Assembly: GCA_964187785.1 (NCBI GenBank)
Contig: OZ076409.1
Location: forward strand, 18,168,001-18,232,000
Direction of reading: 5' to 3'
From: Amphiscolops sp. MND2022
Lineage: Eukaryota
DNA: 64,000 bases
Under the pieces are notes generated by a model. That model was not told where the DNA came from, did no database searches, and worked only from the letters and a program-made list of their open reading frames with translations. This document shows, in pieces, positions 19,301 to 57,309 of this stretch; within the stretch, counting starts at the first letter, position 1; each line of letters begins with the position of its first letter. A program made the translations under genes and the position numbers.

Positions 19301-22300
19301 TTTAAATCTTATTGGTCCAATGAAATCCAATTGGATTTCTTGGTTGGTTTTTTCCGCCGGTGGTAAGTAGTTAATTTCAGTCATTGGTAGTTTTGGTTTA
19401 ATGTTCTTACCTGCCATTTTGCACGGGATGCATTCGTCGCATTTTTGTTGTATGTCCCGAATCAGTCGTGGCCACCAGAACGGTTTGGCTGCTGCTGTCA
19501 TTTTATTTATGGCCGCGTGTCCTTTGTGTAGTAACATTATAATGGTTGTCCTGAGTGATTTTGGAATAATAATTCGGTCGTCGTAGAATACCACACCGAA
19601 TCTCGTTGATAGTTGTCTATGGTAGGCTTTGTATTCTTCCGGGATTTGTTCTAATGTTCTTCGTTCGAGGCATACTAATGTTTTTAGTAGTTTCTCGTCG
19701 TCAGTTGTTTCTTTAGCAATTGTTCTCAGGTCAGTTGCAAATTTCTGCTCCGCTTCTCTAATTGTTTCTTCTAAATCCCATTTGTTTTCTTCTTGTATAT
19801 GACTGGCTTGTCCCATTTGAATATATCGGACACCGGTTGCTCCGATGTATTTTTTGAAATTTATTGCGGGAACGCCCAGGGATTCAATTGAACTTGTTGA
19901 TTCTGTTTCTACTTCTGGTGAATCTTCTTGTTCTTGTGTTTCCCTGCTTGTTTCTAATTGTTTTTCCTGTTTTTGTGGCAAGTTTCGGATTTTTTCGATA
20001 ACCCGGTACAGCTCATTTCTTCGTTCGTTTTCTTCTCCTGCTTCTTCATCTTGTTCTTCCATGCGATTTCAGAGCATTCTGTTTCTTCGTTGGTTCAGAG
20101 TCATTTCTATCCGTTTTATTTCTGCTCTGTGATGTCTTGGCTGATTATATTTTTTCCAAGCTCCGTTTGATGTTCTGTACTCTCCGGGTTTGACTAGTTC
20201 TCTCCAGCGTTTCGTCAAGTTTAGTGTTTCTTCTGAATGATCTTCTTTTTCGATTTGTTCGATTCGACGAATGTCCATTGTTATTTCTTAAACGGTTTGA
20301 ATGGTATTGAGTTTATTTGTATCGACTGTATTTGAATGTGGTAGCGATGAACTGCGTTTGTTTGCTTTGTTCTCTTTTGACTTCGGTTTGTTTGGTCTGC
20401 TTCGCTCTGATTGGTTGACGGTTTGTTCACGCTGTTCGTTTTGATCCGTTCGCGCTTCTAATTTCTTTTGACTGGCGACGCTGCCATAATTGTTGATGAA
20501 CTCGAGTAAAGGCATTATGCAATTAATTACGTACTCTTCATCGTAATTTTCGATCGGTTCTGGTTTTGAGGTTGGGTTTCTGCTCAGATAATCGGTTAGT
20601 GCTAAATGTTTTCCGGCGATATGTTTGATGTTTATATCAAAATGAGCCAAGCGGTCTAACCATCTTGTTAATCTTGCACTATATGTTTTGTTCGTTCGAT
20701 TTCTTTTGATTAATGGTTCCAACGCTTGGTGATCTGTTAATAGTTCTATTGGCTTTCCGTATATGTATAATCGAAAGTGTTCCAATCCCCACACTACTGC
20801 CAGTAGTTCTAGTTCATTTATCGCATATTTCTTTTCTGTGTCCGATAAATATCTGCTTGCGAATCCGACTGGTTTTAAATTTCCATCTTTTTGTTTTTGC
20901 CATAACGTTGCCCCCAGTCCTTTTGTACTGGCATCTGTGGTGATTATGTTTTCGTTTTGTGCGTTATAATGTGCCAGGCATGGTATTTTGGTTATGCCTT
21001 CTTCTAGCTTGTTGAATGCTTCTGTGTGTTCGTCTGTCCAAATCCATTCGTTTTGTTTTTTCAATAGCTTTCTCAGTACGTCTGTGTTTGCTGACAAATT
21101 TTCGATGTACTTCGATAAGTATTGTATTGCTCCCAGGAATGATTTTAATTCTTTTTCGTTTTTTGGTATGTTGATTTTTGTGATGGCTTCTAGTTTATCT
21201 TGTAATGGTCGTATTCCTTGCTGGTCAATTTTGTGTCCGACCCATTCGATTTCTTTTTTGAAAAATTCGCACTTTTTTGGGTTTAGTCTATAGCCGGCTT
21301 CTTCCAATTTCTTCATTGTCTCCCGAACTTCCGTTTCGAGTTCGTCAATGCTTCCTTTGGTGACTATAATGATGTCGTCTAACCATGCCGGGTGTTTGTG
21401 TTCAAGTGTCGTGTCTATCCGTTCTTGAAAAATTGTTGGTATATCGGCCAGTCCGTAAAATCCTTTCAAGAAACGATAGTATCCGGTAAAATCCCCTCCT
21501 GTTACAGTGAATATACAAAGGTTTTTTGTATTTTCGTCGAGTTTAATCTGACCGTAGGCGTAGTCAAAATCTAATTTTGTTGCCAAAATTTCGCCTTCTT
21601 TTCCTTCGGATATCTTTCTTGATATCCGTGAAATTAGCTCTTCCATATTTGGCATCTGAGCTTTTCTCTTTATTGTAACTTCGTTGAGTTTTCTGGAGTC
21701 TAGGGCAATTTTTATTGATTTGTCTATTTTCACTGTAATCACTGCAGGACTCACAAAACAATCTTCGGTGATTTCCGTTGCTCTTTCCAAGTATCCGTGT
21801 TTGATAAGTCGTTTGTTCTAGTGCCACTTGGTCTTGTAGGTGTATTGGGATCGGTCTTCCTTTTTGTTGTATTATTTGTGCCCCTTCTTTCAATTGTACT
21901 TTGACTGAGAGGTTCTTTATCTCTTTGTTGTTGTAGAATAAATCTTTGAAGTCGTTCTGGAGTTTTATTATTTTCTTGTCCATGTTGTCTAGTTTTATAT
22001 TGTGGATTTGGATTGCTTCGTTATTTGAGCTCAGGTTGATTTTTAACCGTTGCATCCAGTCCAATCCCATCAATGGTGATGTTTTCGCTTTTGTAATCAG
22101 TAGTGGTAATTCAATTGTCTCTTTGTTTGTTTTCAACAGTGCGTTCGTTTGTCCAGTAAATTCAATCCTTTGATTGTTTACATCTTTGTAAGTGGTTTTG
22201 AGTGGTTTAATTGTGGTTATATCGTTGAATAAGCACTCTGGAATTAGTGTTACTGGTGAGCCGCTGTCTATGATGAATTTTATTGGTACGTTGTTGACCA

Positions 22301-25300
22301 ATAGTGTTGCGTTGTAGAAATCTTTCTTCTAATCTTTATCGTTTATTCTTTGGATTCTATTGTAATCCCAGTTGTCTTCTTCTGCTGATGAAGTTGTTTT
22401 TTCGATGTATTGAACTCTTTTTGTGGATCTACACATTTTTTCATAGTGTCCTCTTCTTTTGCAATTTCTGCATTCTGCCATTTTCGCCGGGCATATGTGT
22501 TGTCTTGTCCAGTTTGGTGCGCCACATTGTCCGCATCGGTTATCTCTTTGTTTATATTTTTGATTTTCCGGTCGTCTTTTCGATTTGTCTTGATCGGTTT
22601 TGTCTGTCCACTTTCTTTTGTGTGGCCGTTCCTGCACATGTTTAATCTCCTTTCCATCATTTGAATTGTTCGATTCGTTCAATCGGTCGTACATGTGCTC
22701 GTGTATTAATGCTGTTATTGTTTCTATCGTCATGTCACTCTTTCGGATTTTCTTTTTTAATTCGTAGTCACCGGTTGACCGTCCGATTACAGAGAGAAAT
22801 TTTGAGGCTATTAGTTCGGCTGGTGTCACATTCTCGAACTCGCAATTCTTTTCCACTTGTAATATTCTGGTCCACACATCTTCCACTGTTTCATGTTTTT
22901 CTCTAGTTATCCCAGAAATCTGCTCTGCTGTGAAATTTGTTTCGTTCCGGTATGAAGTGTAACCGGAACAGTGAATATAGTTGGTTATTGTCCATTTTAT
23001 TTGGATCATTATCTCTAACGGTTCTTGTCATTTCCGTTATCGCTGACTCCCCCAGTGCCCATATAAATAAATCTTTGATCCGGTGTTCCAGATCGTCTCT
23101 GTAGTTCGGCAATATTTCGCGATCTGTTATCATTTCGTTTAGATCAATGTTTTGAGTCATCTTTATATACTGGGTGAACCTTCTCCACCATAATTTTGCC
23201 TCTTGTATTCCCCGTTTCTCGAACGTTGGTAACGTGATTTTTTGATGAGTTTTTTCTGTTTTTGCATTTGCTCTTTCGGGTAGTTCCCCACTTGATGAGC
23301 TTGTGCTTTCTGATGATTTTTGACTCTCCATCTTGCTTACTGCGCCATGTTGTATCTCACAAATAAGTATGAAAAGAATGTAATGCTGAAGCTTCTATTC
23401 TGTATCAAAGTATTAAGGTTAAGTGAATAGGTCAGCATATGTATGTTAAATGGTAGTACTATTGACTGGTACTAAATTGTCAGTACTACTATTTTTAGCA
23501 CGTATGTAAATAAGTACATGATATGACGTCATGTCACATGTACACAGTCCACTCCATGGAGCTATTACAAGCTATTTCCGTCATCACACCTCCCGTGCAA
23601 CTGGGTAAAACTTCTCGAAATGCAAAAAAAACTCGAAGTTCTCCCAGTTGGTATTGTAGGGATGAATTTTCCATAATTATTTTAAAGATTAAATCAACTT
23701 CAGGCAGGTTTCTTGATCCAAATCTTGAACAATAAACTCCGTAACAATAAGTGACATTTACTTCATGAACTCACTCCTTTCAAGTAATCAAGAAATACGA
23801 AGAAATTCAATACTCGCTTCCTATCGATGAAATTTATTCAAAAAGCTGTTCTAGAAGACAAATCAATGTTTTAGTTATCGTGTGAGTCTTCTGCGTACTA
23901 TACTAGAAACAAAACCTGCATCTACAACTGATTGCACAGGCTTCAATGTTACTCCGGCTCACACAGAAACCGGCTTGTACGCAGGGTTTTGACGTCGCTA
24001 TTTTTTTCGCTAATCGCTAAACCGCTGACTTTCAAATCCTCTATTTCCTTAAAAAAAGTTTTTCCTCAAACTATTCATTCTTTGACTTCAAGTGTTTTAA
24101 AATTAGAACCTTGACCTCATTTAGTTTCTGGAAGAAAAAACTTACATTTGTGTGGGTTTTATAAAAGGTAAAATGTTTTCGAAAATCATTTTGAAACTAC
24201 GTGAAAGGAAATTTTGAATTTAACGTACGTTTTATTAGTTATCGCTAATTTGAAACGCTAAAAAACCGCTAATTTGAATCGCAAAATTGTTAATTAACTA
24301 CTGCTTGTAAGAGATATAACCTGCAGAAATATAACTTGCCATACTGGTTTCCAAATATTACTTTTCTGTATTCGATTCTTTAATTGAGGTCGTTTCTCTC
24401 ATTCCCCTAGTTAGTGCCAAAACTGATGCAGTCACAGCTTGCTTAGGGTGAGTGAAATAACGGTGATGCGACTTTGGCATTCAGCTAACAATTCGCCAAC
24501 CTCAAATGAGGTGAAACTTACTCAGGTAAAACAAGAGGTTTGTTCTGATCGCAATTTTATGCAACAAAACTCATGCTGGCGTACCGACCATCAGTTATTG
24601 GGTGGGGGGTAATCTTTTCTTCCAGTAGGCTAGTGAATATCAGGAAATACCTTTAATTGCACTATTTTAGCTTCTTCAACTCATTGCAACGGCTTTGCAG
24701 GTGTTTGAAATCCGCATTTCAAGAATTTTGATCAATTACAAACTGTTGATTCTTCACTAACTGTTCTGCCAAGTAATGAAAAGCTTCGACAAAAGCGTCG
24801 AATCCGAGACCGGCACTCGCACTGTGCACTGAGGAGGATGACGAATTGGAAGAATAGAAGAGACCCCGTTTGGTCATTCTGATGAACAGCAAGTCAACTG
24901 AAGCTGCGGTTCCTCCACTTCCAGCTAACATAGTTTTGCTGTGAACAAAAATACACTCTACTCTGAGGAGGTTGGCAAAATTAAAAACGTCATAAGTCGG
25001 CGCCCCACTTGACAATCAAAGAGCAAAGACTTTCAAATATGCTCAGGTTATTTTTGAGTGAATTCTCAAAAAGCTGTGCCGAAAATAATGAAAGGAAAAC
25101 AGAAAACAAAAATCGAAGAGAGAGCCCTTGAGCGATTGAAAAATTTCATAGATCGCCGGGTAAAAACAAACAGATGAGGAAAGGAATACATATTTTGCTT
25201 CAATTGAGTCCACGGTGGCGACGAAACTGTACTAAACGCAATCCCAATCAAACTAATTAATAGAAGTTCATAAATTATACTGCTCAAAACGGTGTCCGGG

Positions 25301-37115: not shown

Positions 37116-38360
37116 CTGTTCATGTTCCGAGTAATCCACCAGCTCGCTCACAATGCGAGGTCCTTCTGCATCGTGGTTGTCCAGGTCGTCCGCTTTCTTC
37201 CCGTCACCGCATCTTTCTTCCGAGCTTTGTTTCCCATGGCTCTGGTTTGTGTTCACGTTTTCCGACTGTCCTTCAGTTTTGCTATTGCCGTCAGGGCTCT
37301 GCGAATTTTGAACCAAGTTAAAGAAACCACAATATGAACAGTAGTAGAAGTACGAGTAGAAATAAAACAGCCCGAGACTGATCGGAGATGAAGAAGTCTC
37401 GGATAAAAAGACTATTAGGTTATTTGAAATAAATAATCCAATAAGAGAAGCAAATTTGAATGCATACTATTTCATTTAAATAAGACGTTCAAACCGGAAT
37501 ACGACATACATACATATAGCAAATAAAGTTGCAAGTCGTTCAAAGGAGTATTTTCGAGACTAATTTGAGCAAGAAAAATAAATTCATAAAATCCGCAACA
37601 TTGTGACGTTTACAAAAAAATTTTAGCACTGATCAGTGCAAGTTATGTAGCAATTAAAGTTAATTACGGCAGCACTCAAAAATGACAAGCAGAAAGAGGA
37701 GAGGTCAGAAAGAAAAAAAGCCAATTACGCGTCAAACGCTTGGTCAGTGTGTTGTAACGTTGAGAATAGAGGCTACTCTGACAGCATCGCGGCCATCAAG
37801 AAGCACTAAGTCAGACTAAATGCCAAAGAAGAGCTACCCAAGGCGACTTCAGCTTGAAACTCAAAAAAGTTTTTCACCTGAGACGAAAAAACAACACTCA
37901 TTAGAACCGTTTAATAGTCTCCATTGTTTTACAGTAGTATCATCTGATCAGATCTTTTTCACAAAAAAACAAGCTATATACACCACATGGGTACAAAAAA
38001 TTACAACACATTTACATTCTAACACGTCAAAGAGTGGAAAATTTTGTTACGAAAAAAATTTTTAAACTTAATAAAAATACATAAGGACCGCGCGTACTGA
38101 AACCGGAGTTTGGTGTTGTAAGAGAAAATACTTTTTTGCCCTTATTACATGGCGGGCGTGTCAGTGAAAAGAGTTTGGGTGTCAGTACGCTGCAAGCTGC
38201 AGAGCCTCCTTACAGTGTCAATAACGATCCTATAAAGTAAATTTGGAAAACATCGGTAAGTGGAGGGTAATTTACAAATTAGGACAATGTATCTCAAACT
38301 TTATTGATCGTCAAAAATTATTACTTGGTTTTGCGAGGAGCACCCGAGGGATTGTCAGAG

Positions 38361-41300
38361 TTATGACAGCCCTCCCTCGTGAACTATGGCACTGATAGAT
38401 GACTCTACGATTGCTTGTTGGCGGCGTGTCGCTCTGCAGCCTCTGAGACAGAGGACGGAACTACGTAGAAGAGCAAAACTTATCTTAGTTCTAATGTAGC
38501 TGATCGCGTCGGCGTAGCTCTCTGTACCTTTTTCGTTGATTTTTGCAGCAAGTCGAGTAATTACTTTTGTGGCTGATGGTCCGGCGCCACCTGTACATGC
38601 AAAGACTAGGGGGTTAAAGGTGCTTTTTTCCACATTTATAATTCTGGACTCGTATTTGAGTTTCTTTTGAGATTCGTGAAATTTGTATGCCTCGTTGACA
38701 TTTTTGGGACATGTTCTAGCGAGCGGATTAAAAATCTTGACGTCGAAAAAAGTTCTACAGAAACGAGAATCCCAAAGTCCGTTTGCTTTAATATCTAGTC
38801 TCGACTCATCTTCAGTTGTCGTTGTTTTATGGACGAAGGACTCACCTTCCAAAGGCTAAGTTTCGGCTCGATTTCGACATCATAGCAGACCTCTTTCATA
38901 ACGGAGGCAAACGTGTCGCGGATTTCATTGTGTCGCATTTGGTTGTACCCTCCTTTGTTGCATTGAAGGGAATGCGACAGGCTGAAAGACTCTCCACAGG
39001 GACATATTGACGGTGTTTTTAGTGGTTCCCACCCATAGCGCAGAGCCAAACCGTCGCGGAATTCTGTTTTCGACAGATCAAAGTGATATCGTTTGAGTGG
39101 TAGCGTGTTCAACCAGCTAGATGCACCTTGTTCAATTGACAGATCTAGTGCGTAGCGTTGATTTTCATCGAGTTTTTCCTTCAAGATTGATATCTTTCCT
39201 TTGATTTTTGCGGACTTCTCTTTTCTAACTTGTTTCACGATTGAAGACTGTTGAGCTTCCGCGTCCTCGTCATTGTCCAAACATGCTGCCATTTGTCTCG
39301 ACCAGTTCAATTCTTCTACTCTGTCTTCAGGATGTACTATGTTAAGTCCACCATCCCTCACAGGCAGGGAGAAAAGAGAACGTTCCTCGTCCGTGATGTT
39401 ACTTCTGCCGGTTATTGCTGGGATCAGGTTTTCCTTGATCTTTCTTTCCGTTTCTTCGAGATTTTCTATGAAATTAGGAGTCGTGCGTGAGAGAAAAGTC
39501 ACTTTGTTTTGAAGACCTTTGGTGAAGCAGTGAAATACATTTTGTGGAGAAATTTTTGCGTGTTTCGACAACTTCTCTACGATCTGATTGTATTCACTTT
39601 GTTTATGGTCTCTGAATTTTTCACAAGCAGACTCTGATCCTATTACAGACCCTAGGACACGATGTCCATCAACTATTTCAACATCTTCTTTGATAAATAG
39701 ATTCTGGGCTTGTTTCAAGTGTTCGGTTTTTGCAATGATGTTACATTTCGTCAATGTGTAGCCGAAAGCAGGTCCGTGCTTTTTCAATTGTTCGTGAACC
39801 GATTTTAGGTCTTTGAGACTGCCTGTTACATTACCATCGTCGGCGTACCACATCTGAGTGATGTTTGATTTTTGAATCAGGTCAATCAGCGGTAGGATAG
39901 CAATTCCGTACATCGCCATGGCTAGAGGATCTCCTTGAGTTGTTCCCTCTTGCGATTGCAAGGTTTTGCCGTTGACAAAAAGATCTGTCGGTGTTTTATA
40001 CGAGTTCTTTATGGCTGTTATAATTGAAGGACATTTATTTTCGATGTTCCGGAGCGCGAGGTCCCTGTTCAGGCTATTAAAAGCGTTCTTTGCATCGATG
40101 AGCAAAATGCCTTGAACTTCAGGGGTCTCGAACTGTTGCCTGAGGCTATGTATAGCGTGTTCGATTCCGCATTTCTGACCGAGACAAAGTTGTTTGTTTT
40201 TACCTAAGAGCTTCAGGTCGTTCTCTACACAGCGCAGTGTGCTTCTTCCTATGATTCGTCTGAGAACTTCCCCAACGCCAATTGGTCGTACCCCTGGGTT
40301 CTTGTCAAGGGGTATCAAACGGCAGGCATTGTATGGCCTTAGTGCTTCACGGTCAATGTCTTCAGTAGCGATTCTCACAGCTAAGCGGGCGACCGTGCGG
40401 CAGAGTGACGTCGATGACTGGTTAAAGTTGGACATCCAGCGCCGCCATTCGTTGGCATCCACACCGGAGGGTCCGTGGCTTCCGTGTGTTTTCATTCCGG
40501 CCCTACGAATGGCTCCTGCTTGTATTCTGTCGAAGATTACAGGATGGTAAGGCGGAATGTTTTCGGAACTTGCAACTACGTAGGTGTCGTCGCAACCTTT
40601 GGCTGGGGGGTGTTTCTCCTTCAGGATATCAAGAACCGACTTGTTGTCAATTTTTTCTGATAGAGATAGGACTCCGCCTTTTTCACATTCATTCACACTC
40701 CGTAGGGCGTTTGAGATTTTCCCGGCGGACATGTGTGTATCGAAGTCTCGGAACATATCTTTTGCTCTATTGTTGGATTTTGATTTCGTAGTTCGTTTTT
40801 GCAATGCCTCTGCTTCCTTGAAAAGTTCTTCGATTTCGCCATTTAGCCACATTCTCAGTCTTCTGGTCGTCGTCTTGTTCCTCGACGCATCTGGCTCAGA
40901 GGTAGTCCTTGATAAGACTAAATGTGGCATTAGCATTGCTGCATATAAAGCTATGTTCTCATTGCTTTGTTTCTCTGATATTGCAGATAGTAGGCGGTCC
41001 ATTGTCTCGACAAACTTGTGCCCAGTTTTGTTTTTAGGCAGCGTGATGAATGAAGGTTTCCAATGAACTACTTGATTGTAAAAGTCTTTAATTTGAATAG
41101 CTTTTTCAGGGGTGACTTTTGCCCAGAAACCATCCACTGATAGTTCTTGGTTCAGTTCATCAGTCAGAGGTTGTTTCTGGTGTGTGGCGGTGCTCGCGTG
41201 ACTTGTTGAACTGTTCGGTGGTTCAATGGCTGGCGAGTTGGCGGCTTCGCTTGGCTGTGGTCCTTGGCAGCGTACACAGATAAAGTCTTTGGACCAGTCT

Positions 41301-41416
41301 TTCGCAGCGGAGAGACCGCTGCATTTCGTGTGCACGTATCCACATATCGCACACCATACGCCTCGACTACGTAAATGGGCCTGGCAAATGCTGCAGTGTG
41401 TTTGATTGCCTGACAT
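38361..41416 (-). CDS. CRE ORF2: PHD-like finger, RT, CCHC finger and REL endonuclease (one frameshift near 38860)
   Basis: CSIC..CAIC..H..C..W..CVRC. RPIGVGEVLRR, IDAKNAFNS, GTTQGDPL, WYADD. CPCG..HSLQC..RHNEIRD..RLDI..FFDVKI..KKLKY. Confidence 0.92.
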
Positions 41417-41441
41417 TGTGGAGGGAGAGCTGTCGTGTCAA

Positions 41442-41981
41442 TTATTTGATTTGATTACATGTAAAGTGATTAAAATAAAATTTCAAAATCTGAGTGAAAA
41501 CTAAATTTCCAAATCGAGAAAAATGAATGCCGTCTCGGGCAAAAATCTTGTGATCAAAATCACGATTTAAATGAGGTGATATTATAGGCAGGTTGAGGGA
41601 GCGTAGCAGATTGTAGAGGGCAAAATTCAGCTGGTTGATTTTTCTATTCACTGTCTGGTTGTTAGAAGTTGCAATGGTTTTGGGGATAATGAGGTTACGG
41701 GGCTGGAACTTCAGGTACACAAGTTGAATCAGGAACTTCCAATTGTCTGTAAATGTAGTGGCTGCATCACGGTGATCATTAAAACCAGCGACAATGATAA
41801 GGGTATTGATTTTGCGCTGCGGGTATTGTTGGATCAGATTACAGAGCTCGAGCAGGGAGGCACCACGGTAAGAGTGAACTGCTGCACCGATGTCTTTTGA
41901 CCTAATGTATTTCGTTCTGGATGTGCCAATCACAAGATTTGTTGTTCGTTGGCTCAGCTGTCTGGGTTCGAAGCGTGACAT
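41442..41981 (-). CDS. ORF1: SGNH/GDSL esterase-like protein
   Basis: Block I VIGTS, block II SYRGA, block III VAGFND, block V RDGIHF. Confidence 0.8.
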   Translation of the reverse strand: MSRFEPRQLSQRTTNLVIGTSRTKYIRSKDIGAAVHSYRGASLLELCNLIQQYPQRKINTLIIVAGFNDHRDAATTFTDNWKFLIQLVYLKFQPRNLIIPKTIATSNNQTVNRKINQLNFALYNLLRSLNLPIISPHLNRDFDHKIFARDGIHFSRFGNLVFTQILKFYFNHFTCNQIK

Positions 41982-42357
41982 CCTGGAACAAAAAGGACGG
42001 CGCAGTATCGATGGATCATTTGAGTCTCAAAAACTTTCAAAATCAAGGACTCAAGAAAAGAACACAGCTAAAAAACAGCACTAAAAGCTCAAAAAAAGAG
42101 CAGTAAAAAGCATTAAAAGCTCCAAAACGGAGCACTAAGAGCTCAAAAGGAGCACAGAAAAACAAAAAGGAACGAAACAAACTGGCAGGAGTGAAGAGTT
42201 TCTTCTGGTTGCAGGCTGCTGCTCCTTCCTGTGCCTCGCCGCACCACTGAATAATGTAAAAGCTCAAGAGCTGTAAATCATACAATGCCGGCCGCTGAAA
42301 TCCCTAACTAAAAATAGGGCTACCCAATCCAGAGTTGTCCGGGCTTACATAACACAC

Positions 42358-42388
42358 CTATTTAATAAGTTTATCACAACAATTAGGC
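42358..42388 (-). other. Spliced-leader-like exon, 31 nt, at the CRE 5' end
   Basis: GCCTAATTGTTGTGATAAACTTATTAAATAG followed by GTGTGT. The same sequence occurs at 56608-56635. It resembles, from memory, a reported acoel SL. Confidence 0.7.
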
Positions 42389-42842
42389 TAAAAGCATTTT
42401 ATGCCTACGAAAAAAATGATGAAAAAGTTCCTAAAAAGTCCCCACCAGATCACCAGAAGAATCTCCACATCAAGAAAAATGAGATCAACCACATTACCTC
42501 AAAACTGACTCTCGAAAACTTCCATGCTAGCTCAATTTAAATTTAAAGACAGAAAAAAGCACAATGATTTTCGACTCAAATAATAATTTTTGAAGTTCGC
42601 TAAAAACTTATCTAGCACGGTTCAGGTTCGAAATTGCGACGGAACAATGGCAACAGTTCCATTAATTCATTGTTTGCTTGTAGACATTGCTCTGCTTTTA
42701 TTCTTAGTCTGAAAAAAACAGCTGCACCTTATAATCAATTGACAGAAGTCAAACTTTGTCCTCTGAAAAAATGTTACAGGACACTGAAAGACGTCATTTC
42801 AGCAAATGATTGGTCTTTTCCACAATCAATGATAGGAGGGTG

Positions 42843-43947: not shown

Positions 43948-44388
43948 CTGATCATTATAATACGTCCTTGAATAGCAGTTGGTACGCCAGATGTCTCTTT
44001 TGATAGTTGACCGTTTTTGGAACTCGACAAATGTTCAAAGTACTCTTCTTCAGCTTCCTGCAAGAGACAACTCTGCTTTTCCAAAAGACTCCCTTTGCCT
44101 TTCATATGATACAAGTTTGATTCAACTGATCGCTGCACTTGTTATAGTCAAATTAGTTGTTTCCGCTGTTCTTCATCTCCGAGACTATGAGAGATGACCA
44201 ATATGAGCTTTTGATTGGTTAGCCAAAGCGCTTGCAAATGCTTGAAACCGTTCACTTCAAGCACTTGGTTGTTTCTTGACCAATTACAGTCGAGACCTAA
44301 TTTCATCTTCTATCAAGAGATTTGTCATTTTCTGTCTTTCGGTCTTAGAGTTAAGAACACTTAGCCATACGTCTCCCACTAACCAGAA

Positions 44389-44982
44389 ATGCTAAACTAC
44401 CAATCAGTTGACATTGATTTCGAAGGTTTCCGCATCTCTAATCATCCATTTGTTGTTAAAGAATGGTCCGTACGTGGGCTGGATTTCCACGACACTATAC
44501 TATTGAAACCACCATATACATCAAACTTGATACCGTCGAAGACACAAAAAGTTTATGCTTGGTTAACAAAGAATATACACGGTCTCACGTGGGAATCTGG
44601 CGTTCACAATTACTCTTTTCTATTCTGCTTTTTCGTCAGTCTGAAAATACGTTTCCCGAACATTATTGTTTATGCAAAAGGTTTCGAAAAGTGTGCCTAT
44701 CTCCGCTGTTTCTTCATTCAAGTTATCAATTTAGAAACTCCTAATTGCCCTAGCGCCAACCAATTAAACCTTCTTCCCAAATTCACTTGCTCCAATCACC
44801 TGGGCAGCTACCATCGCGCGCATTGTGCGAGAGAGAAAGTAAATCTTTTCTACGATTGGCTCTCTCGTTGGAATCAAAATTGTGAACATTGCAATACTGC
44901 TAATGTCGAAGGACAATCTACACCTTACCCTTTCCACGAACTTAACACTTTCAGTAATAACAACAGCTCATCTGGACAGTGA
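44389..44982 (+). CDS. DEDD/DnaQ-like exonuclease-fold Polinton accessory protein
   Basis: VDIDFEGF..VKE..HGLTWESG..YAKG.EK..INLE..C..H..HCA. Confidence 0.6.
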   Translation: MLNYQSVDIDFEGFRISNHPFVVKEWSVRGLDFHDTILLKPPYTSNLIPSKTQKVYAWLTKNIHGLTWESGVHNYSFLFCFFVSLKIRFPNIIVYAKGFEKCAYLRCFFIQVINLETPNCPSANQLNLLPKFTCSNHLGSYHRAHCAREKVNLFYDWLSRWNQNCEHCNTANVEGQSTPYPFHELNTFSNNNSSSGQ

Positions 44983-45226
44983 TTGTAGTCAAGAACATTG
45001 GTGTATTGAAGTGATCAAAGAAGAGTACAAGAGAGTGGGTGAACATAGACTACTACGGAAGGCGGTCATCAGCTTATCTCCAACTGAATACCAACAGTTC
45101 TTGTCTAGTACAAGCTCTGTCGATTCTTTTCTCAAGTTCGTCAGTACAAACCATGTCAAATCAACGTCTCCAGCAATTGATGAAAGAGCGCAACATACCT
45201 CCTCTAAAAATTCCCGAACCACCTGA
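44903..45226 (+). CDS. Small Polinton ORF, weakly PC4-like
   Basis: Overlaps both neighbours. RKAVISLSPTEYQQF resembles the PC4 KKGISLT.EQW motif. Confidence 0.3.
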   Translation: MSKDNLHLTLSTNLTLSVITTAHLDSDCSQEHWCIEVIKEEYKRVGEHRLLRKAVISLSPTEYQQFLSSTSSVDSFLKFVSTNHVKSTSPAIDERAQHTSSKNSRTT

Positions 45227-45407
45227 TCCCGTCATTCTGTCCGGTCTCGAAGATCCTTTGTTACCGGTACAGATAGCGAAAGAACTGTCATCACGGGATG
45301 ATGTTGTGGAAATAGCCTACTTTGCCCCTTTCAAAAATTGGAGAGGTCAATTCAGAGTAACTTTCAAGAAAAACGGAAACTTTAATTTTTGTCGGTTTCA
45401 TGTATGA
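45153..45407 (+). CDS. Small hypothetical Polinton ORF
   Basis: ATG-initiated (MSNQRLQQLM...) and part of the compact cluster. Confidence 0.35.
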   Translation: MSNQRLQQLMKERNIPPLKIPEPPDPVILSGLEDPLLPVQIAKELSSRDDVVEIAYFAPFKNWRGQFRVTFKKNGNFNFCRFHV

Positions 45408-45737
45408 TTTAATTTGTATTCTTTATAAGCATAATTCAAATCTTTGTCTCATTCTCTTTTTTGATGTCAACGCAAGCAGTCGATACCACAGACGCAATCG
45501 GCGTCGAAAGTTTAGTTTTTCAAGGTGATCAGAGTGAACGCTCATCTTGGAAATTCTGCAATTCCACAACCTTACCGCGTTCTGAGGTAGTTTTTTCTTC
45601 CAAGCACTAATTTTATTGATTCTCATCATCGCAGTTCTAGTGAAACTACTTTTTTACGAAGTACCTTGCGAAGAGATGCCATTCTGGGTGTCACTTTTAT
45701 CTGCTGCAGTCGGATATATTCTTTCCAATCCACGACT

Positions 45738-46457
45738 ATGAAAAAAATAATTTTTACCAGTGACCGTCTGTTCATGTCAGTCGTTGGGCCAGGAGGTTCC
45801 GGGAAAACCAGGTTGATTTTTTCAATGCTGGCTTCCGAAACTTTTCGTCCGAAGTTCGAGAAAACTTACTATTTCTACAAGGAATATCAGCCTTTGTTCA
45901 AAGAAATGTCAGAAAAACTAGATATCGAGTTTGTCTCTTGTCTCAATTTCCAAATGATCAAACAACTAGAGAATTGTCTCCTTGTCTTTGACGATTCTTG
46001 TGAAGAAATTTATCAAAAAAAAGAGTTTGTCAAGTTGGCTGTTGCTGGCAGACACCGAAACGTACATTGCATCTTCGTCAAACATAATTTGTTCCACCAG
46101 AGTAGGTGGTCGCGTACCATTGATCTCAATACAACTCATATCATTCTCTTCAAATCATCCAGAGATTTGCAACAGATTGATCACTTCGGTAGAAAGTTGA
46201 TGAAGGTTGACTTTCTTCGCGAAACCTACAGGAAAGCAACATCTGAACCCTATGGACATTTATTGGTTGATTTAGATCCTAAAACTAGCGAGTATTTACG
46301 TTTTGCCTCGAACATCACAGCCCATGGCTTTCAGTTACCGTCAGAACTTGCGAGACAAACGAACCTATCAAATGAACGCGAAAAACGTGCTTACACTAAA
46401 GCATTGGCAGAGCAGAAAAAGCAAGAAAGAATACAGAAAATTTCTATGTGTATGTGA
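45738..46457 (+). CDS. FtsK-HerA/A32-like DNA packaging ATPase
   Basis: Walker A GPGGSGKT, Walker B LLVFDD, arginine finger GRHRN, LNTTHIILFKS, PYGHLLVD. Confidence 0.9.
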   Translation: MKKIIFTSDRLFMSVVGPGGSGKTRLIFSMLASETFRPKFEKTYYFYKEYQPLFKEMSEKLDIEFVSCLNFQMIKQLENCLLVFDDSCEEIYQKKEFVKLAVAGRHRNVHCIFVKHNLFHQSRWSRTIDLNTTHIILFKSSRDLQQIDHFGRKLMKVDFLRETYRKATSEPYGHLLVDLDPKTSEYLRFASNITAHGFQLPSELARQTNLSNEREKRAYTKALAEQKKQERIQKISMCM

Positions 46458-46677
46458 TCCTGAAAGCCTCAGGTTTCTCTGCGAATGCGCTTTCAACATT
46501 ATCAACGGCAACGTGCCTTTCGATGTTGAAAAATTATTCCCTTGCGAGTCACAATTGAAAGTTTTGTGCAATAGTTCAACTTCGCCCAGGAAACGTCGAG
46601 AAACACTGTGCTCAGTCAAAGGAATAAAGTTACTTCAAGAGATCAGTCGGTCTATCAATTCTTATCTTATGCAATGA
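46372..46677 (+). CDS. Small conserved Polinton protein next to the ATPase
   Basis: LCECAFNIINGNVP motif, which I recognise from ATPase-adjacent Polinton ORFs. Confidence 0.6.
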   Translation: MNAKNVLTLKHWQSRKSKKEYRKFLCVCDPESLRFLCECAFNIINGNVPFDVEKLFPCESQLKVLCNSSTSPRKRRETLCSVKGIKLLQEISRSINSYLMQ

Positions 46678-46922
46678 CTTCCCATGAGTTTATTTTGGTT
46701 CCGAAAGAAAATTACATTGAACACCAACCAAAAAGCTTGGAAATCCTAGATGATGCAACAATCAACGAAAAAGCAAAGATTTTGACTCTTTTGCAGAGAC
46801 AACAACCACCCAAAGACCCGAAGGAAAACAAGACTCAGTCCACTTTTTTGTCAGAACCCGAGCGAGACATAATTGAAAAACGGGTTTTAAAATCACTGTC
46901 AATGATGAAACCTTTCAACTGA
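46674..46922 (+). CDS. Truncated Polinton ORF
   Basis: ATGA overlap with the previous stop. MTSHEFILVPKE... Confidence 0.45.
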   Translation: MTSHEFILVPKENYIEHQPKSLEILDDATINEKAKILTLLQRQQPPKDPKENKTQSTFLSEPERDIIEKRVLKSLSMMKPFN

Positions 46923-47318
46923 TGAACACAAATCGTTAGTTTTGTTTACCAGCATTGAAAGGGGTTGTACCTCCTTTTTATGATTTGAAATTTAAATACT
47001 TAGCCTGCTTTGATGAAACTGTTTATCTCAGTTGAAGCGTCCATTTTTCTCGGCTGAAGAACTACTATTTTTGTTGATTTTCTTTGTTAGGTATTTCTTC
47101 AGTTTCAGCAAAAGTTCAGTTCACCTGACTGCCTTTGCTTACATTAGAAACTCGCGGACGATGCTGATATCGCCTTTAGTACGTAAAATAGGTCACCACT
47201 TTCTCTGCTCAGACACCATGTAAACAAAAGGATTTTGAAGTGCTTTCTTTTGTTTGCTCAAGTAGCAGTGAAATTTTATCACCCTGCGAAAGGCATAAAA
47301 TTTATCTCAGGGTGGTAA

Positions 47319-49220
47319 TAGCACGGAACTGCGTAACAAAGCGAAGCTAATTTGCGTCCTGATGTATCCTATGGCGTCCGAGTAGCTGTCTTGTCCTTTT
47401 TCGCTGATCTTCAGAGCAAGTCGGGACATAACTTTCGAGGCTGAAGGACCTGCGCCTCCTGAACACGCGAAGACAAGAGGATTGAATGAGCTGTTTTCCA
47501 CATCAAGGATTCTCTGTTCGTACTTCAGTTTTTTCAAAGTTTCATGATATTTATACGCTTCCTTTACTTCTTTCGGACAGGACTTGGCCAGCGGGTTAAA
47601 AATTTTGACGTCAAAAAACGTTCTCGAGAATCGTGAATCCCAGAGTCCATTTGCTCTGATATCGAGACGAGCTTCATCTTCAGTGCAAGTTGATTTATAT
47701 TCGAAGGATTCCCCTTCTAACCTCTGAAGTTTCGGCTCCACCTCAACGTCGAAGCAAACGTCTTTCATTATCTTTGCGAACGTATCGCGTATTTCGTCAT
47801 GTCTCATGTGAGTGTAGCCTCCTTTTCCGCAGTGTAGGGAATGGGCAACAGTGAAGGGTTCACCACATGGGCATTTGGCAGGTAAATTCTTCGGCTCCCA
47901 ACCGTAGCGCAGCGCGAGACCGTCCCGAAATTCAGACTTCGTAAGAGTGAAACCATAGCGTTTCAGTGGGAGGGCGGCTAGCCAGCTGGATGCTCCTTTT
48001 TCCGAAACAAGTGTAACTGCGTGTCGTTGTTCGTCATTCAAGTTGCATTTGACTTCTTCAAGCTTAGTTCTTTGAATTTCTTGCTTCTGTTTCTTTATCA
48101 TGTTTACTGTTGAGTGTTGCTTCGCTTCAGCGGTGGTTAGATCCTCTTCATCTAGATGAGAAGTAACATCCTTTGACCACTGCAGATCGTTTCTTCTGTC
48201 TTCGGGTGAAAGGATATTCAGCCCACCTTTGCTGAGCGGTAGGGAGAAAAGAGACCGTTCTGCTACAGATAACTGACCACGGCCGGTGATGTTAGGGATC
48301 AGTTTCGTCGTTAAGAGAGATTCGGTGTTTTGCAGTGTGCTATCCATGTCAGGTGTTGTTCTTGACAGGAAGGTGAGTTTGTGTTGAACACCTTTTGTAA
48401 ATGCATGATAGACATTCTGTGGTGACTTTTTCGCATGTGACGCAAGTTTGTCCACAATGTTCGTGTACTCAGTGAGTTTGGAGGACTGGAAAGCGTGACA
48501 GGCCTCGGGCGATCCAATAACGGAACCCAGTACACGGTGTCCTCCCACTAGTTCAACATCCTCGTCTTTAAAGAGGTCTTTTGCTTTGTCAAGGGAGGAA
48601 TCTTTCGTGATGAGATGACATTTAGTGATGTTGTATCCAAATGCGGGACCGTGGAGCTTCAGTTTTTCGAAGAGATTTCGAAGCGATTCGATGCTACCGG
48701 CTACATTGCCATCGTCAGCATACCATTTTTGTAGCACTCCTTCTTCGTTCACGAGGTCCATTAACGGTAGAAGCGCAATGCCATACATGGACATAGCCAA
48801 AGGGTCGCCTTGAGTAGTTCCTTCTTGCGACAAGAGAGTTTTCCCATTCACGTAAAGGTTTGAAGGTGTACCATATGAGTTTCGGAGCGCTGTTATGATG
48901 GATGGACAGGTTTTCTGAATGTTTTTCAGGGCCAGATCCCTATTTAGACTATTGAACGCGTTTTTGGCGTCAATCAGGAGAAGCCCTTCTGTCTCTGGCA
49001 GCTCGAAAGTCTCACGTAGACTGTGAATGGCGTGTTCGATGCCACATTTTTGACCAAGGCAGAGTTGCCTATTCTGGCCCAAGATCTTGAGATCGTTCCC
49101 GATGCATCGAAGAATGTTCCTCCCAATTATGCGTCTGATGACTTCGCCCACTCCGATTGGTCTGACACCGGGTTTTTGTCAAGCGGTATGAGACGGCATG
49201 CGTTGTAGGGAGTTAGTTGT
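47319..49220 (-). mobile_element. Second, divergent CRE element, truncated at both ends (RT plus REL)
   Basis: 614-aa ORF with IDAKNAFNS, GTTQGDPL, WYADD, RHDEIRD, FFDVKI. It breaks after LLRSSVL at the Polinton TIR. Confidence 0.92.
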
Positions 49221-52497: not shown

Positions 52498-53390
52498 GAA
52501 CTATGTGACATGCGGGCTGAGAAGAGAAGGTTGTTCCTCGGAAAAAACACGCGCACTTTCCCATGACACTAGCTTTTCGCAAGTAAAATTAGTCAGCATA
52601 ACGAGTGTCAAAATCTCTTTTTGGCGAAAGATCGGCAGGCACTGGTTGATTTTAAAGTGAACTTCGTAGATCTGTTGATGGCCAAAAACCCAGCGGAAAC
52701 AAGATTTCTGGAAACGCTCCGTTTCCTTCAATCTGTTGATGTCGCGAAACCAAGCCGGAATATCATAAATGAAGATGGAGAGCACCGCTGCCCGAAAGAG
52801 ATTTAATTTTGCACGCGAAGGGGTATTAAGGGGATTCTTGACTTCAGAGAATAAAACGCCTTTCTCGCTCTTCTCGCTTTGTTGATTTCAATTTCAATAT
52901 GACTGACCAATTAAAAATCATTTGAACTATGCAAACCCAAAATTTCGTATTATGTCACATTCTCCAACGGTTCTGTAGATCTTAAAACAAAATCTGTTGA
53001 CCTTTACTTGCAAAGCATTTGGTTTTATCCAGATTAGCAGTCATTCCAATTCCAAAATCGCGATGAATGGTTGAGATCATCCGTAAATACGCATGGAAGA
53101 GTCACGAAAATTTGAATGCAAGTCATTTACGAATAACAGAAACAGCAACGGTCCGACAAGCGAACCCTGAGGCACACCACTGGCAACATGAATAGCATCG
53201 GATCATACTTTTACGTGTTAGATGCGATCATCAAGATAGCTTCGTAGTAGATCAACAAGATCACTATCTAAACCGAATCTCAGGAGCTTAGGGAAAAGTT
53301 TTGGATGAGGAACGTTGTCAAATTCTTTTTCATTTTGCATGTAAATGAACATACCAGAAGTTTTATGGTGATGTATTATTTCAACAAAAG

Positions 53391-54665
53391 CTATCAACTG
53401 GTGTACTAAGCTTTTTTCCGACTGAAACCCAATCTGTTAAGGATGAAAATCTGTATGTAATGTTTTGTACAAGAAAGAAATATTTCAATCGAAGATCAGG
53501 GATACTTTTGATAACAAATTGATAGGACGGTAGTTACTGATTATATTCACGAGGTTGTATACACCTCTATTGTGTAGAGGACGAACATATGCCACTTTCC
53601 AAACGTCAGGATAGACACGTGTGAGCAAGATAGAAGCAAGAAAATCGTAGAAGAAAATCGGACACACTTTCATTAAAACTGGCGGTAAGCATTCGGTTTT
53701 TTTAAGTGAAGATTCTTTTGTTTCTAAAATCCTTCGTGTTGTTATATTGTTTGAAGAATTCAGTATATCAGCTAACTTCACAGACTTGTAACTGGGCACA
53801 GGAAAAGGACAGAATACATGAGTATTGTAATCTTTTGAAAGATATATAATGCAAGCATTTGCAGTTTGCTTACGCCCAGAGTAGGAACATTAGTTTTGGT
53901 TCATGACAGTGAGGCAGGAACAGGATGTTGAGTTCACGCTGTTCAGAAAATTGAAACAATCAGCGAGAGAATTGGTTCGCGCTCCATCGATGAACAAAAG
54001 ACGATCAAGTTCAGTGGAGGTTTCGAAATCTATCAACTGGTGTACTAAGCTTTTTTCCGACTGAAACCCAATCTGCTGAGGTTGAAAATCTGTATGTAAT
54101 GTTTTGTACAAGAAAGAAAAAATTTCAATCGAAGATCAGGGATACTTTTGATAACAAACTGATGGGACGGTAGTTACTGATTATATTCGCGAGGTTGTAT
54201 ACACCTCTATTGTGTAGAGGACGAACATATGCCACTTTCCAAACATCAGGATAGACACGTTTGAGCAACATAGAAGCAAATAAATCGTGGAAGAAAATCG
54301 GACACACTTTCATTAAAACTGGCGGTAAGCATTGGGCATTTTTAAGTGGAAAGTCTTTTATCTCTAAAATCATCTTTCTTATTGTTACATTGTTTGAAGA
54401 ATTCAGTATATCAGCTAACTTCACAGAATTGTAACTGGGCACAGGAAAAGGATGGAACACATGAGTATTGCAATCTTTTGGAAGATGTATATTGAATACC
54501 ATCAATTTGCTTACCCCCAGAGTAGGAATAATAATTTTGTTTCATGACAGTGAGGCAGGATGTTGAATTCAAGCTGTTCAGAAAATTAAACCAATCAGTG
54601 ACAGAATTGGTTCGCGCTCCATCGATTAACAAAAGACGATCAAGTCCAGTGGAGGTTTCGAAATC
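53391..54665. repeat. Tandem duplication, unit about 640 bp, inside the LINE RT
   Basis: ORFs 53485 and 54125 are offset by 640 bp and are diverged copies. Confidence 0.9.
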
Positions 54666-56607: not shown

Positions 56608-56635
56608 CTATTTAAGTTTATCACAACAATTAGGC
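56608..56635 (-). other. Spliced-leader-like exon at the LINE 5' end (3-nt deletion variant)
   Basis: GCCTAATTGTTGTGATAAACTTAAATAG, 13 nt upstream of ATG 56594. Confidence 0.7.
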
Positions 56636-57309
56636 TTCAGTTTAATCGTTATATAGCGCACAATTAATCCCTGTACCAGTTCACGTCGCCTTCAGTTTTT
56701 CTCGGACTACGGAAAATTTAACTACTAAGAGTAGACGAAGTTTAGTATTCGCATTTGAATGCAGACGAAACTCTCGGCGAACGAATAATTAACACTTGTT
56801 GGCTTCATCCCAATAACTCCGCGTACGAAAGCATAATTACCATTGGCTCGTTCCATCGCACGAAAAACAAATTGTTGTCGGCTGCTTGAGAATTTTAAAT
56901 TTCACGCTCATACTTACTGCCGAACAAAATATCTGAATTTTTCAGAAGGTACTAAATCGCTGATAAAAGTTGACTGAAAAAAGTTGCATGGTTCAGATTT
57001 CACCGTGTAACGTCACCACGTGTAACGTCACCCTATTGCACACCGCATTATCACCAATCGAAGTTAGATAAATTCGAAGTAACCGAAAGTGACGTTGATT
57101 GCGTATGTGACGTTAACAGCATGCTTGCTCTTGGAGCAAGTCACCAAAAATGAAGGAAACTGAGCCTCAAATGTCCGTGCAGAGACCGTGGAAACACGAA
57201 AGACCGCGAAAAGACGGTCTATAGAAGGACTCAATTAGCAAGTGCTGATAACGCTGAAAGTGATTCAAGATCGCCATTCGCGTATCTTCTAGCATGTTGC
57301 TACTTGTTG

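Follow-up and report, generated by a model that had tools for sequence, protein, structure and literature searches.

Within the RLE-type non-LTR retrotransposons, the CRE clade (SLACS, CZAR, CRE1 and CRE2) and NeSL are described as elements tied to spliced leader (SL) genes (PMC12278014, PMC3636483, PMC4640811). The element examined here resembles them, in the features that these accounts give, by its reverse transcriptase (RT) followed by CCHC and restriction-like endonuclease motifs, by its target-site duplications (TSDs) and by its association with the SL; however, the described elements insert into SL RNA genes, whereas the present one is scattered through the genome and itself begins with the leader exon. 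The R2 group, as characterized in PMC3636483, consists of single-ORF elements, in contrast to the present element with its separate esterase ORF1. Esterase ORF1 proteins are listed for CR1/L2, RTEX and Penelope-like elements (PMC3905857, PMC4120745). They share with the present ORF1 the SGNH fold and the G-x-S, G-x-N-D and D-x-x-H blocks, but the listings given there name no RLE-type clade, whereas the ORF1 described below is followed by an RLE-type ORF2 and lacks a coiled coil at its N-terminus.

Every round of retrotransposition requires a LINE to restore its 5' end, and the solutions described are internal promoters and self-cleaving ribozymes, such as the ribozyme of R2. Accounts of individual elements report co-transcription for R2 (PMC3636483) and the Pr77 promoter/ribozyme for L1Tc (PMC3383444). 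The need to rebuild an exact 5' end each round is also the problem of acoel LINEs; however, R2 and L1Tc, as described there, use a ribozyme or an internal promoter, whereas the acoel LINEs would use the host trans-spliceosome, and the UTR of the present element matched no ribozyme family. In dinoflagellates, DinoSL relic retrogenes are described as leader-bearing RNA that is retrocopied, retranscribed and trans-spliced once more, with an AG within the earlier leader as the acceptor (PMC12014239). As in the acoel LINEs, leader-bearing RNA is copied into DNA; in the dinoflagellate account, however, an inner AG is used, relics accumulate and host genes are concerned, whereas the acoel elements are autonomous LINEs with no tandem relic, in which the use of a terminal AG would be seamless. 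Similarly, partial SLs at 597 mobile-element (LTR/LINE) loci of parasitic flatworms are ascribed to integrated trans-spliced RNA (PMC12582326); like the acoel LINEs, these loci hold leader pieces at mobile elements, but they receive a passing mention as discarded loci, and the passage concerned offers no evidence of a standing 5' end of a lineage or of its renewal. Splice sites within a LINE 5'UTR are described for the SpIREs of human L1, for which full-length RNA is the productive template and spliced copies are dead ends (PMC5860796); the spliced forms of L1 do retrotranspose, in contrast to the CRE-like element, for which no spliced copy was found and whose splice sites and upstream ORF are conserved across subfamilies. 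Leader-tagged retroposition as such is already known; in a literature search that covered few subscription journals or Repbase reports, neither the leader as a standing, renewed 5' end of a LINE nor an esterase ORF1 in an RLE-type element was found described.

The locus lies in a 64,000-nucleotide stretch of the genome of the acoel Amphiscolops sp. MND2022 (the window, i.e., the whole of the DNA analysed), where a LINE of 4.3 kb extends on the minus strand from 42389 to about 38060, with the leader as its 5' end within the TSD. The label CRE-like, taken over from the preliminary description and from a likeness of motifs, is an assumption on our part, and the 120 relatives listed include no named CRE reference. 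Read along the minus strand, the upstream TSD copy of 12 bp (42406-42417; the same 12-mer recurs downstream at 38048-38059) is separated from the element by a 16-nt filler (42390-42405), whose last 7 nt are identical, possibly by chance, to the sequence that precedes the host SL RNA gene. The first element bases are an exact 32-nt copy of the host SL exon, leading A included (42389-42358), after which GT begins at 42357 and 375 nt lead up to and include the AG at 41984-41983; a single G separates this AG from the ATG of ORF1 at 41981. The arrangement of SL exon, GT, 375-nt spacer and acceptor 1 nt before the ATG is thus confirmed as it had been read in the preliminary description, together with the T/C-rich low-complexity tract in the spacer, which is a degenerate tandem repeat (42068-42155). 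The acceptor itself reads TTCCAG in the window copy and TTTCAG in most sister copies. Behind the leader lies a 5' module common to subfamilies A, B and C (42246-42357), in place of which D-G carry other modules; it contains a donor-like AT/GTAAGC at 42348, matches no Rfam family and differs from the host SL intron. A purine-rich motif (42224-42245), found with changes in all seven subfamilies, is followed by a candidate 5'UTR intron of 199 nt (41983-42181; CAG/GT to AG), within which an upstream ORF (uORF) of 21 codons opens (41954-42019), out of frame with ORF1.

ORF1 (41442-41981, minus) encodes 179 aa with a predicted SGNH/GDSL esterase fold. The predicted model has a pLDDT of 93.8, its top PDB structure matches are SGNH hydrolases (TM 0.74), and the Atlas score is 0.95; Lipase_GDSL_2 was found in 5/30 relatives and not in the window ORF1 itself, a PDB sequence search with ORF1 alone returned nothing, and a profile search gave one weak GDSL match (E 0.42). 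ORF2 (38361-41416, minus) contains an N-terminal Cys/His finger, the reverse transcriptase, a CCHC knuckle and restriction-like endonuclease motifs; a domain search recovered RVT_1 only, with the APE domain absent, and the CCHC and PD-(D/E)xK-like motifs that follow the RT are located at 804, 827, 872 and 889 of the intact relative P0176. The best solved relative of ORF2 is an R2 protein (E 1.7e-6); the order RT-CCHC-PD-(D/E)xK-like without an APE domain and the TSD agree with the R2 group, whereas its single ORF is not found, a separate esterase ORF1 being present in all subfamilies. The element is closed by a 3'UTR with a short A/T-rich tail (38060-38360, minus), in which similarity to sister copies stops at about 38076-38067, and by the downstream TSD copy. 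The window copy differs from an intact sister at 16 of 4315 columns and is damaged, with a frameshift in ORF2 near 38857 and the donor G of CAG/GT changed to T. Directly before the start of ORF2, a CU-rich motif (CTCCCTC-like; 41417-41427, minus, in the window) is seen in all subfamily representatives, and ORF1 ATGs are scarce, with 2-4 in full-length ORF1s against about 7-8 expected; both may be signals of reinitiation or leaky scanning. As regards ribozymes or known RNAs in the UTR, the window has no Rfam match at the gathering score, the interval 41900-42500 gave two chance-level matches, and a twister/HDV likeness spotted by eye was unsupported and dropped.

The identification of the first bases as the host SL, made in the preliminary description, is upheld by the 31-mer after the leading A, which is identical to the SL published for Symsagittifera roscoffensis (PMC9911081). 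Genome-wide, the exact SL 31-mer is present 1678 times, compared with 0 for a reversed control and about 1e-8 matches expected by chance. Within the exon, a single branch-point-like CTAAT is found (nt 4-8), and the sole AG after it is the terminal one. The host SL RNA genes are arranged in tandem with 5S rRNA in units of 904 bp (G000:C1:16.229-16.416+ Mb; L061-L068), have GTAAGT as their donor and possess an intron that contains the stretch AATTTTTG and differs from the sequence behind the leader in the window. The edge of this SL/5S array is packed with APE-type LINEs (zf-RVT in one of them) and with single-ORF derivatives of 1.4-2.9 kb, all inserted in the leader exon and duplicating its first 14-18 bases; SL-gene targeting in this genome is by APE-type, not RLE-type, elements.

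The window copy has the traits of retrocopied SL-trans-spliced RNA: its 5' end, within the TSD, is a whole leader that meets the element sequence at the splice junction, with no SL intron. That the leader belongs to the element is borne out by its position inside the TSD and by upstream flanks that are not common to copies: the flanks are unrelated in the 29 other loci compared, save for one duplicated pair, a comparison that the preliminary description had proposed. Full-length copies of subfamilies A and B have an exact TSD of 10-16 bp in 16/21 cases, with none in 2 and the 3' end not located in 3; in subfamilies C-G, a TSD match of at least 10 bp was found at 11/15 loci, three of which are doubtful and lie 33-45 nt from the leader. 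Where the TSD is credible, the interval from it to the leader showed no 5'-transduced flank. The copies are scattered across many contigs (40 matches among 62 candidates), and site-specific insertion into SL RNA genes, a trait of trypanosomatid CRE elements, was not found. A G before leader base 1, as a trace of a copied cap, is not enriched (3/34 and 4/36), while T at this position is somewhat frequent in the CRE-like set (17/34, against a background of 33%).

Loci were collected by an ORF1 protein search independent of the leader, which gave 542 candidates; 150 were scored and 70 examined, namely the 30 best and 40 more picked for an intact ORF1 start, 6 of the 70 being from another family. 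A leader was present, 265-763 nt upstream of ORF1, at 50 of the 64 CRE-esterase loci; the 14 leader-less loci are 5'-truncated, with a break inside the UTR and unshared flanks, except that two of them (L253 and L273) keep the UTR intact up to the junction, with no AG there and likewise unshared flanks. All A/B loci that reach the UTR start (36/36) have a leader or a remnant upstream, one split by an insertion. All seven subfamilies are headed by the leader, and the majority leader equals the host leader in 7/7, while the next two bases are GT, AT, TT, CA, GT, GC and GC, respectively. Eight representatives of the subfamilies, most of them chosen from copies whose leader is intact, were aligned; they are 54-91% identical, with a tree length of 3.6 substitutions per site. 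None of the leader columns varies (32/32 invariant), and identity ends at the splice junction; outside the leader, no invariant run exceeds 6 nt, and no other 32-column segment has more than 22 invariant positions.

Several further observations concern the sequence around the leader in these loci. Subfamily E shows exchange of the 5' modules behind the leader, and such modules also recur in both CRE-like and APE-type families (L254, L260, L288, L153). In L263, the leader is joined 40 nt into the subfamily G UTR, where sister copies read CAT, not CAG. Stuttered partial leaders stand directly upstream of a full leader in L255, L254, L186, L192, L214, L094 and L295, as expected from RT slippage at the extreme 5' end of leader-headed RNA. 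A related esterase (39% identity) with a longer N-terminus occurs at six or more near-identical loci (L289-L294), which have no leader within 1 kb upstream and represent a different element type.

The AG before ORF1, described earlier as a strong acceptor, proves to be conserved across copies: a pyrimidine-AG lies at most 5 nt from the ORF1 ATG in 48/50 leader-headed loci, and four distant ORF1 relatives (42-65% identity) have CFR directly before the start, a translation of the same acceptor. CAG/GT (42182/42181) is kept in 47/50 loci, its G being T in the window copy, and the T-rich middle between it and the acceptor measures 112-228 nt in the representatives and is free in length and sequence. 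From CAG/GT to AG, the interval looks like a 199-nt 5'UTR intron, although CAG/GT would be a weak donor and could instead be an acceptor. The uORF begins inside the candidate intron, 35 or 38 nt before the ORF1 start, and stops 28 nt past that start, a layout found in 39/50 loci and 6/7 subfamilies; splicing at the ORF1 acceptor would remove the uORF ATG. A search for spliced genomic copies with exact patterns, by which decayed copies are missed, gave 0 with the leader joined to ORF1 (within 30 nt) and 0 with the inner CAG joined to ORF1, in accordance with the earlier proposal that the template for new copies is RNA that retains the spacer. One reading is a switch in which spliced RNA would serve ORF1, and unspliced RNA would serve ORF2 and be the only template; we put this forward tentatively, as something that may or may not hold. 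The other reading is that the ORF1 acceptor is rarely used.

Leaders also head LINEs of other families. From the first 100 listed of the exact leaders followed by A, C or T, 40 loci were sampled, with the second half tilted to leader-plus-A, and in 35/40 the leader heads LINE ORF2 sequence on the same strand. These LINE families are 24-34% identical to each other, several have APE domains, and they barely align to the CRE-like one. In family X, 45 copies have the form leader-TTTCAG-body and 10 (10/55) the short form leader-body, two of the 10 being a local duplicate; family Y has 23 long-form and 4 short copies (4/27), two of the 4 adjacent. The CRE-like group, in which the exact-pattern searches found no spliced genomic copy, differs in this from both families. 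The leader of the short copies is joined exactly after the inner TTTCAG, and, because there is no GT donor at the junction, this is most plainly explained by trans-splicing to the inner acceptor. The short X copies are spread over all three subfamilies, as defined by diagnostic sites, and share private substitutions at background level only, so that the event must have recurred. Such genomic joins show LINE RNAs in this genome to be trans-spliced. A leader-free search of family X returned a leader or decayed leader at 35/35 distinct loci, with 34 near-exact at the 3' end and one carrying a short deletion.

Secondary structure and the bases directly behind the leader differ among the sampled loci. 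In L126, L142, L140, L147 and L161, an antisense arm is predicted to bury the 3' half of the leader in a hairpin of 13-20 bp, with 0/60 shuffles equally stable; in the CRE-like family, a leader hairpin is not beyond shuffles (10, 3 and 39 of 60). A predicted antisense arm behind the leader is also noted in L145 and L133 and in subfamily D (L232), and the families that carry such arms are unrelated; the pairing covers bases of the host SL RNA stem I, in some cases with compact four-base loops. TTTC follows the leader in 21/40 sampled loci (L122-L151), either as TTTCAG or as the non-acceptor TTTCCG or TTTCCT, and TTTCAA is found in subfamily C, a pattern that would suit a spare acceptor retained in some cases and inactivated in others.

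The element RNA probably acquired its leader by trans-splicing, and the best model, which we consider rather probable, is that the old leader is reused as a trans-splice acceptor and replaced by a fresh one. The first base of full-length copies is leader base 1, and all copies examined retain the spacer in front of ORF1. Transcription, as read-through or from a loose internal promoter, would begin at the leader or further upstream, and the old leader would then act as acceptor, so that flank and old leader are exchanged for a new, capped leader; the same 5' end would be rebuilt, which in other LINEs is the task of a 5' ribozyme or an exact internal promoter. The leader could be its own acceptor, with a single branch-like CTAAT (nt 4-8) and its two final bases as the first AG. 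By construction, replacement at the terminal AG leaves no trace, which fits the absence of tandem leaders: three matches to tandem-leader relics within 30 nt all have the SL-gene donor and are SL-gene fragments. The leader-headed copies themselves would be the sources, with the leader renewed. In a further step, of which we are less sure and which may be an even guess at best, some RNA would be spliced again at the ORF1 acceptor, either in cis from the inner CAG/GT or in trans; the overlapping uORF would be removed to give the ORF1 message, and unspliced RNA would provide ORF2 and the only template.

Several other explanations of the leader have to be weighed. The preliminary description had considered that 42388-42290 might be a genuine SL RNA gene, with the element inserted in it or behind it; trypanosomatid CRE elements do insert in SL RNA genes (PMC12278014, PMC3636483), and SL-targeting LINEs exist in this genome. 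The window copy, however, shares with the host gene the leader exon alone: GTGTGT stands in place of the GTAAGT donor, the host intron with its Sm-type site and the upstream sequence are absent, as comparison of 42357-42290 with the host SL RNA intron makes clear, and the copy lies outside the SL/5S array. The supposedly Sm-like stretch TATTTTTAG (42316-42308) turns out to be the loop of a hairpin that differs between subfamilies. Moreover, the TSD lies outside the leader and is different in each copy, the copies are scattered over many contigs, and the elements that do sit in the SL array are APE-type ones that duplicate the first 14-18 leader bases, all of which makes targeting or capture of an SL RNA gene scarcely conceivable. 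Cis-splicing from the GT beside the leader to the ORF1 acceptor, by which the element's own leader would mimic a trans-spliced message, was the main proposal of the preliminary description. The conserved acceptor and the GT after the leader in subfamilies A and E speak for it, as does the better donor-like AT/GTAAG situated 9-13 nt further in A, B and C; yet GT is the majority state in only 2/7 subfamilies (19/50 loci), AT, TT, CA, GC and GC following the leader in the other five, GTGTGT matches the host SL donor GTAAGT poorly, and in no genomic copy is the leader joined to ORF1 within 30 nt. We regard this route as very improbable. As the bases after the leader vary by subfamily, the GT is mostly a chance start of the subfamily A UTR, and the inner CAG/GT at 42182/42181 is a better donor candidate.

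Two explanations dispense with renewal. The leader may have been captured once or a few times by trans-splicing and now be inherited in cis, with an internal promoter that starts at base 1; leader and 5' module would together be the promoter, and the leader would be selected as part of it or as a mimic of a trans-spliced 5' end. A promoter role of leader sequence is reportedly also known from Ascaris. The predicted hairpins over leader nt 18-32 in several families, which copy host SL RNA stem I and bury the AG, fit such inheritance, as do the exchange of 5' modules between families, in the manner of LINE promoters, the lack of a 5'-transduced flank where the TSD is credible, and the promoter role of the leader suggested for dinoflagellate retrogenes (PMC12014239). 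Against it, 32/32 bases are invariant over 3.6 substitutions per site and also in unrelated clades, the element RNAs are plainly trans-splicing substrates, and the sequence that precedes the host SL gene is missing from the copies. Inherited leader variants were not found either, those seen more than once occurring in different subfamilies or non-sister copies, which is a weak test, as source copies with a changed leader could be selected against. Inheritance in cis thus appears unlikely, although it deserves to be taken seriously. The alternative that the RNA comes from leader-less source copies, which would have a promoter and an outron of their own, and is trans-spliced once, leader-headed copies being dead ends, is the simplest origin of a retrocopied leader and is the reading offered in the passage on the flatworm loci (PMC12582326); L253 and L273, which keep the whole UTR without a leader, would suit it, and only 70 of the 150 scored ORF1 matches (542 candidates) were examined in an assembly that may be incomplete. 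Nevertheless, no leader-less source copy was found among the loci examined: 36/36 A/B loci with a UTR start and 35/35 family X loci from the leader-free search have the leader or its remains, L253 and L273 lack both a junction AG and common flanks, and an unseen source copy would be needed for each of seven subfamilies, so that we consider this origin quite unlikely. Renewal of the leader at its terminal AG, which we prefer, has its own difficulties: AAATAG lacks a pyrimidine tract; the hairpin predicted for some families would hinder use of the terminal AG, yet 23/27 family Y copies are of the long form; an inherited leader could also stay unchanged under strong purifying selection; and the leader-less L253 and L273 keep the UTR right to the junction. 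A mix of leader renewal and an inherited leader with an internal promoter is possible.

Unusually strong genomic signs indicate that, in LINEs of different clades, the leader has a working role in the life cycle and is probably renewed. A wider proposal, for which we would claim not quite even chances, is that many LINEs of this acoel, across RLE- and APE-type clades, have handed the formation of their 5' ends to the host trans-spliceosome, with the leader swapped in every cycle, and that the CRE-like elements add to this an esterase ORF1 and an intron/uORF switch. If so, a retrocopied leader would be a self-contained acceptor, and neither an exact promoter nor a ribozyme would be needed; SL trans-splicing would be tied to transposon success, which could bear on the persistence of trans-splicing. 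With hundreds of copies from distant clades in one animal that all begin with the host leader, a third solution to the 5'-end problem becomes directly testable in a cultured acoel. For annotation, genomic leader matches are often the heads of LINEs and not SL RNA genes, as at least 403 of the 1678 exact matches are not followed by G (they are followed by A, C or T).

The window holds the remains of further elements. A second, decayed leader with a 4-nt deletion (56608-56636, minus) heads an apparent old APE-type LINE, and RT-like remains are located downstream of it on the same strand (52630-54364, minus). A 5'-truncated piece of another CRE-like ORF2, 67% identical to P0176, occupies 47307-49178 (minus), and an LTR-retrotransposon gag-pol with protease, RT, RNase H and integrase is found in several broken frames at 18098-23394 (minus). 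Finally, short frames at 44383-46922 (plus) include a weak match to an A32-type packaging ATPase (E 1e-4, just under the Pfam cut-off) and may be Polinton-like remains.
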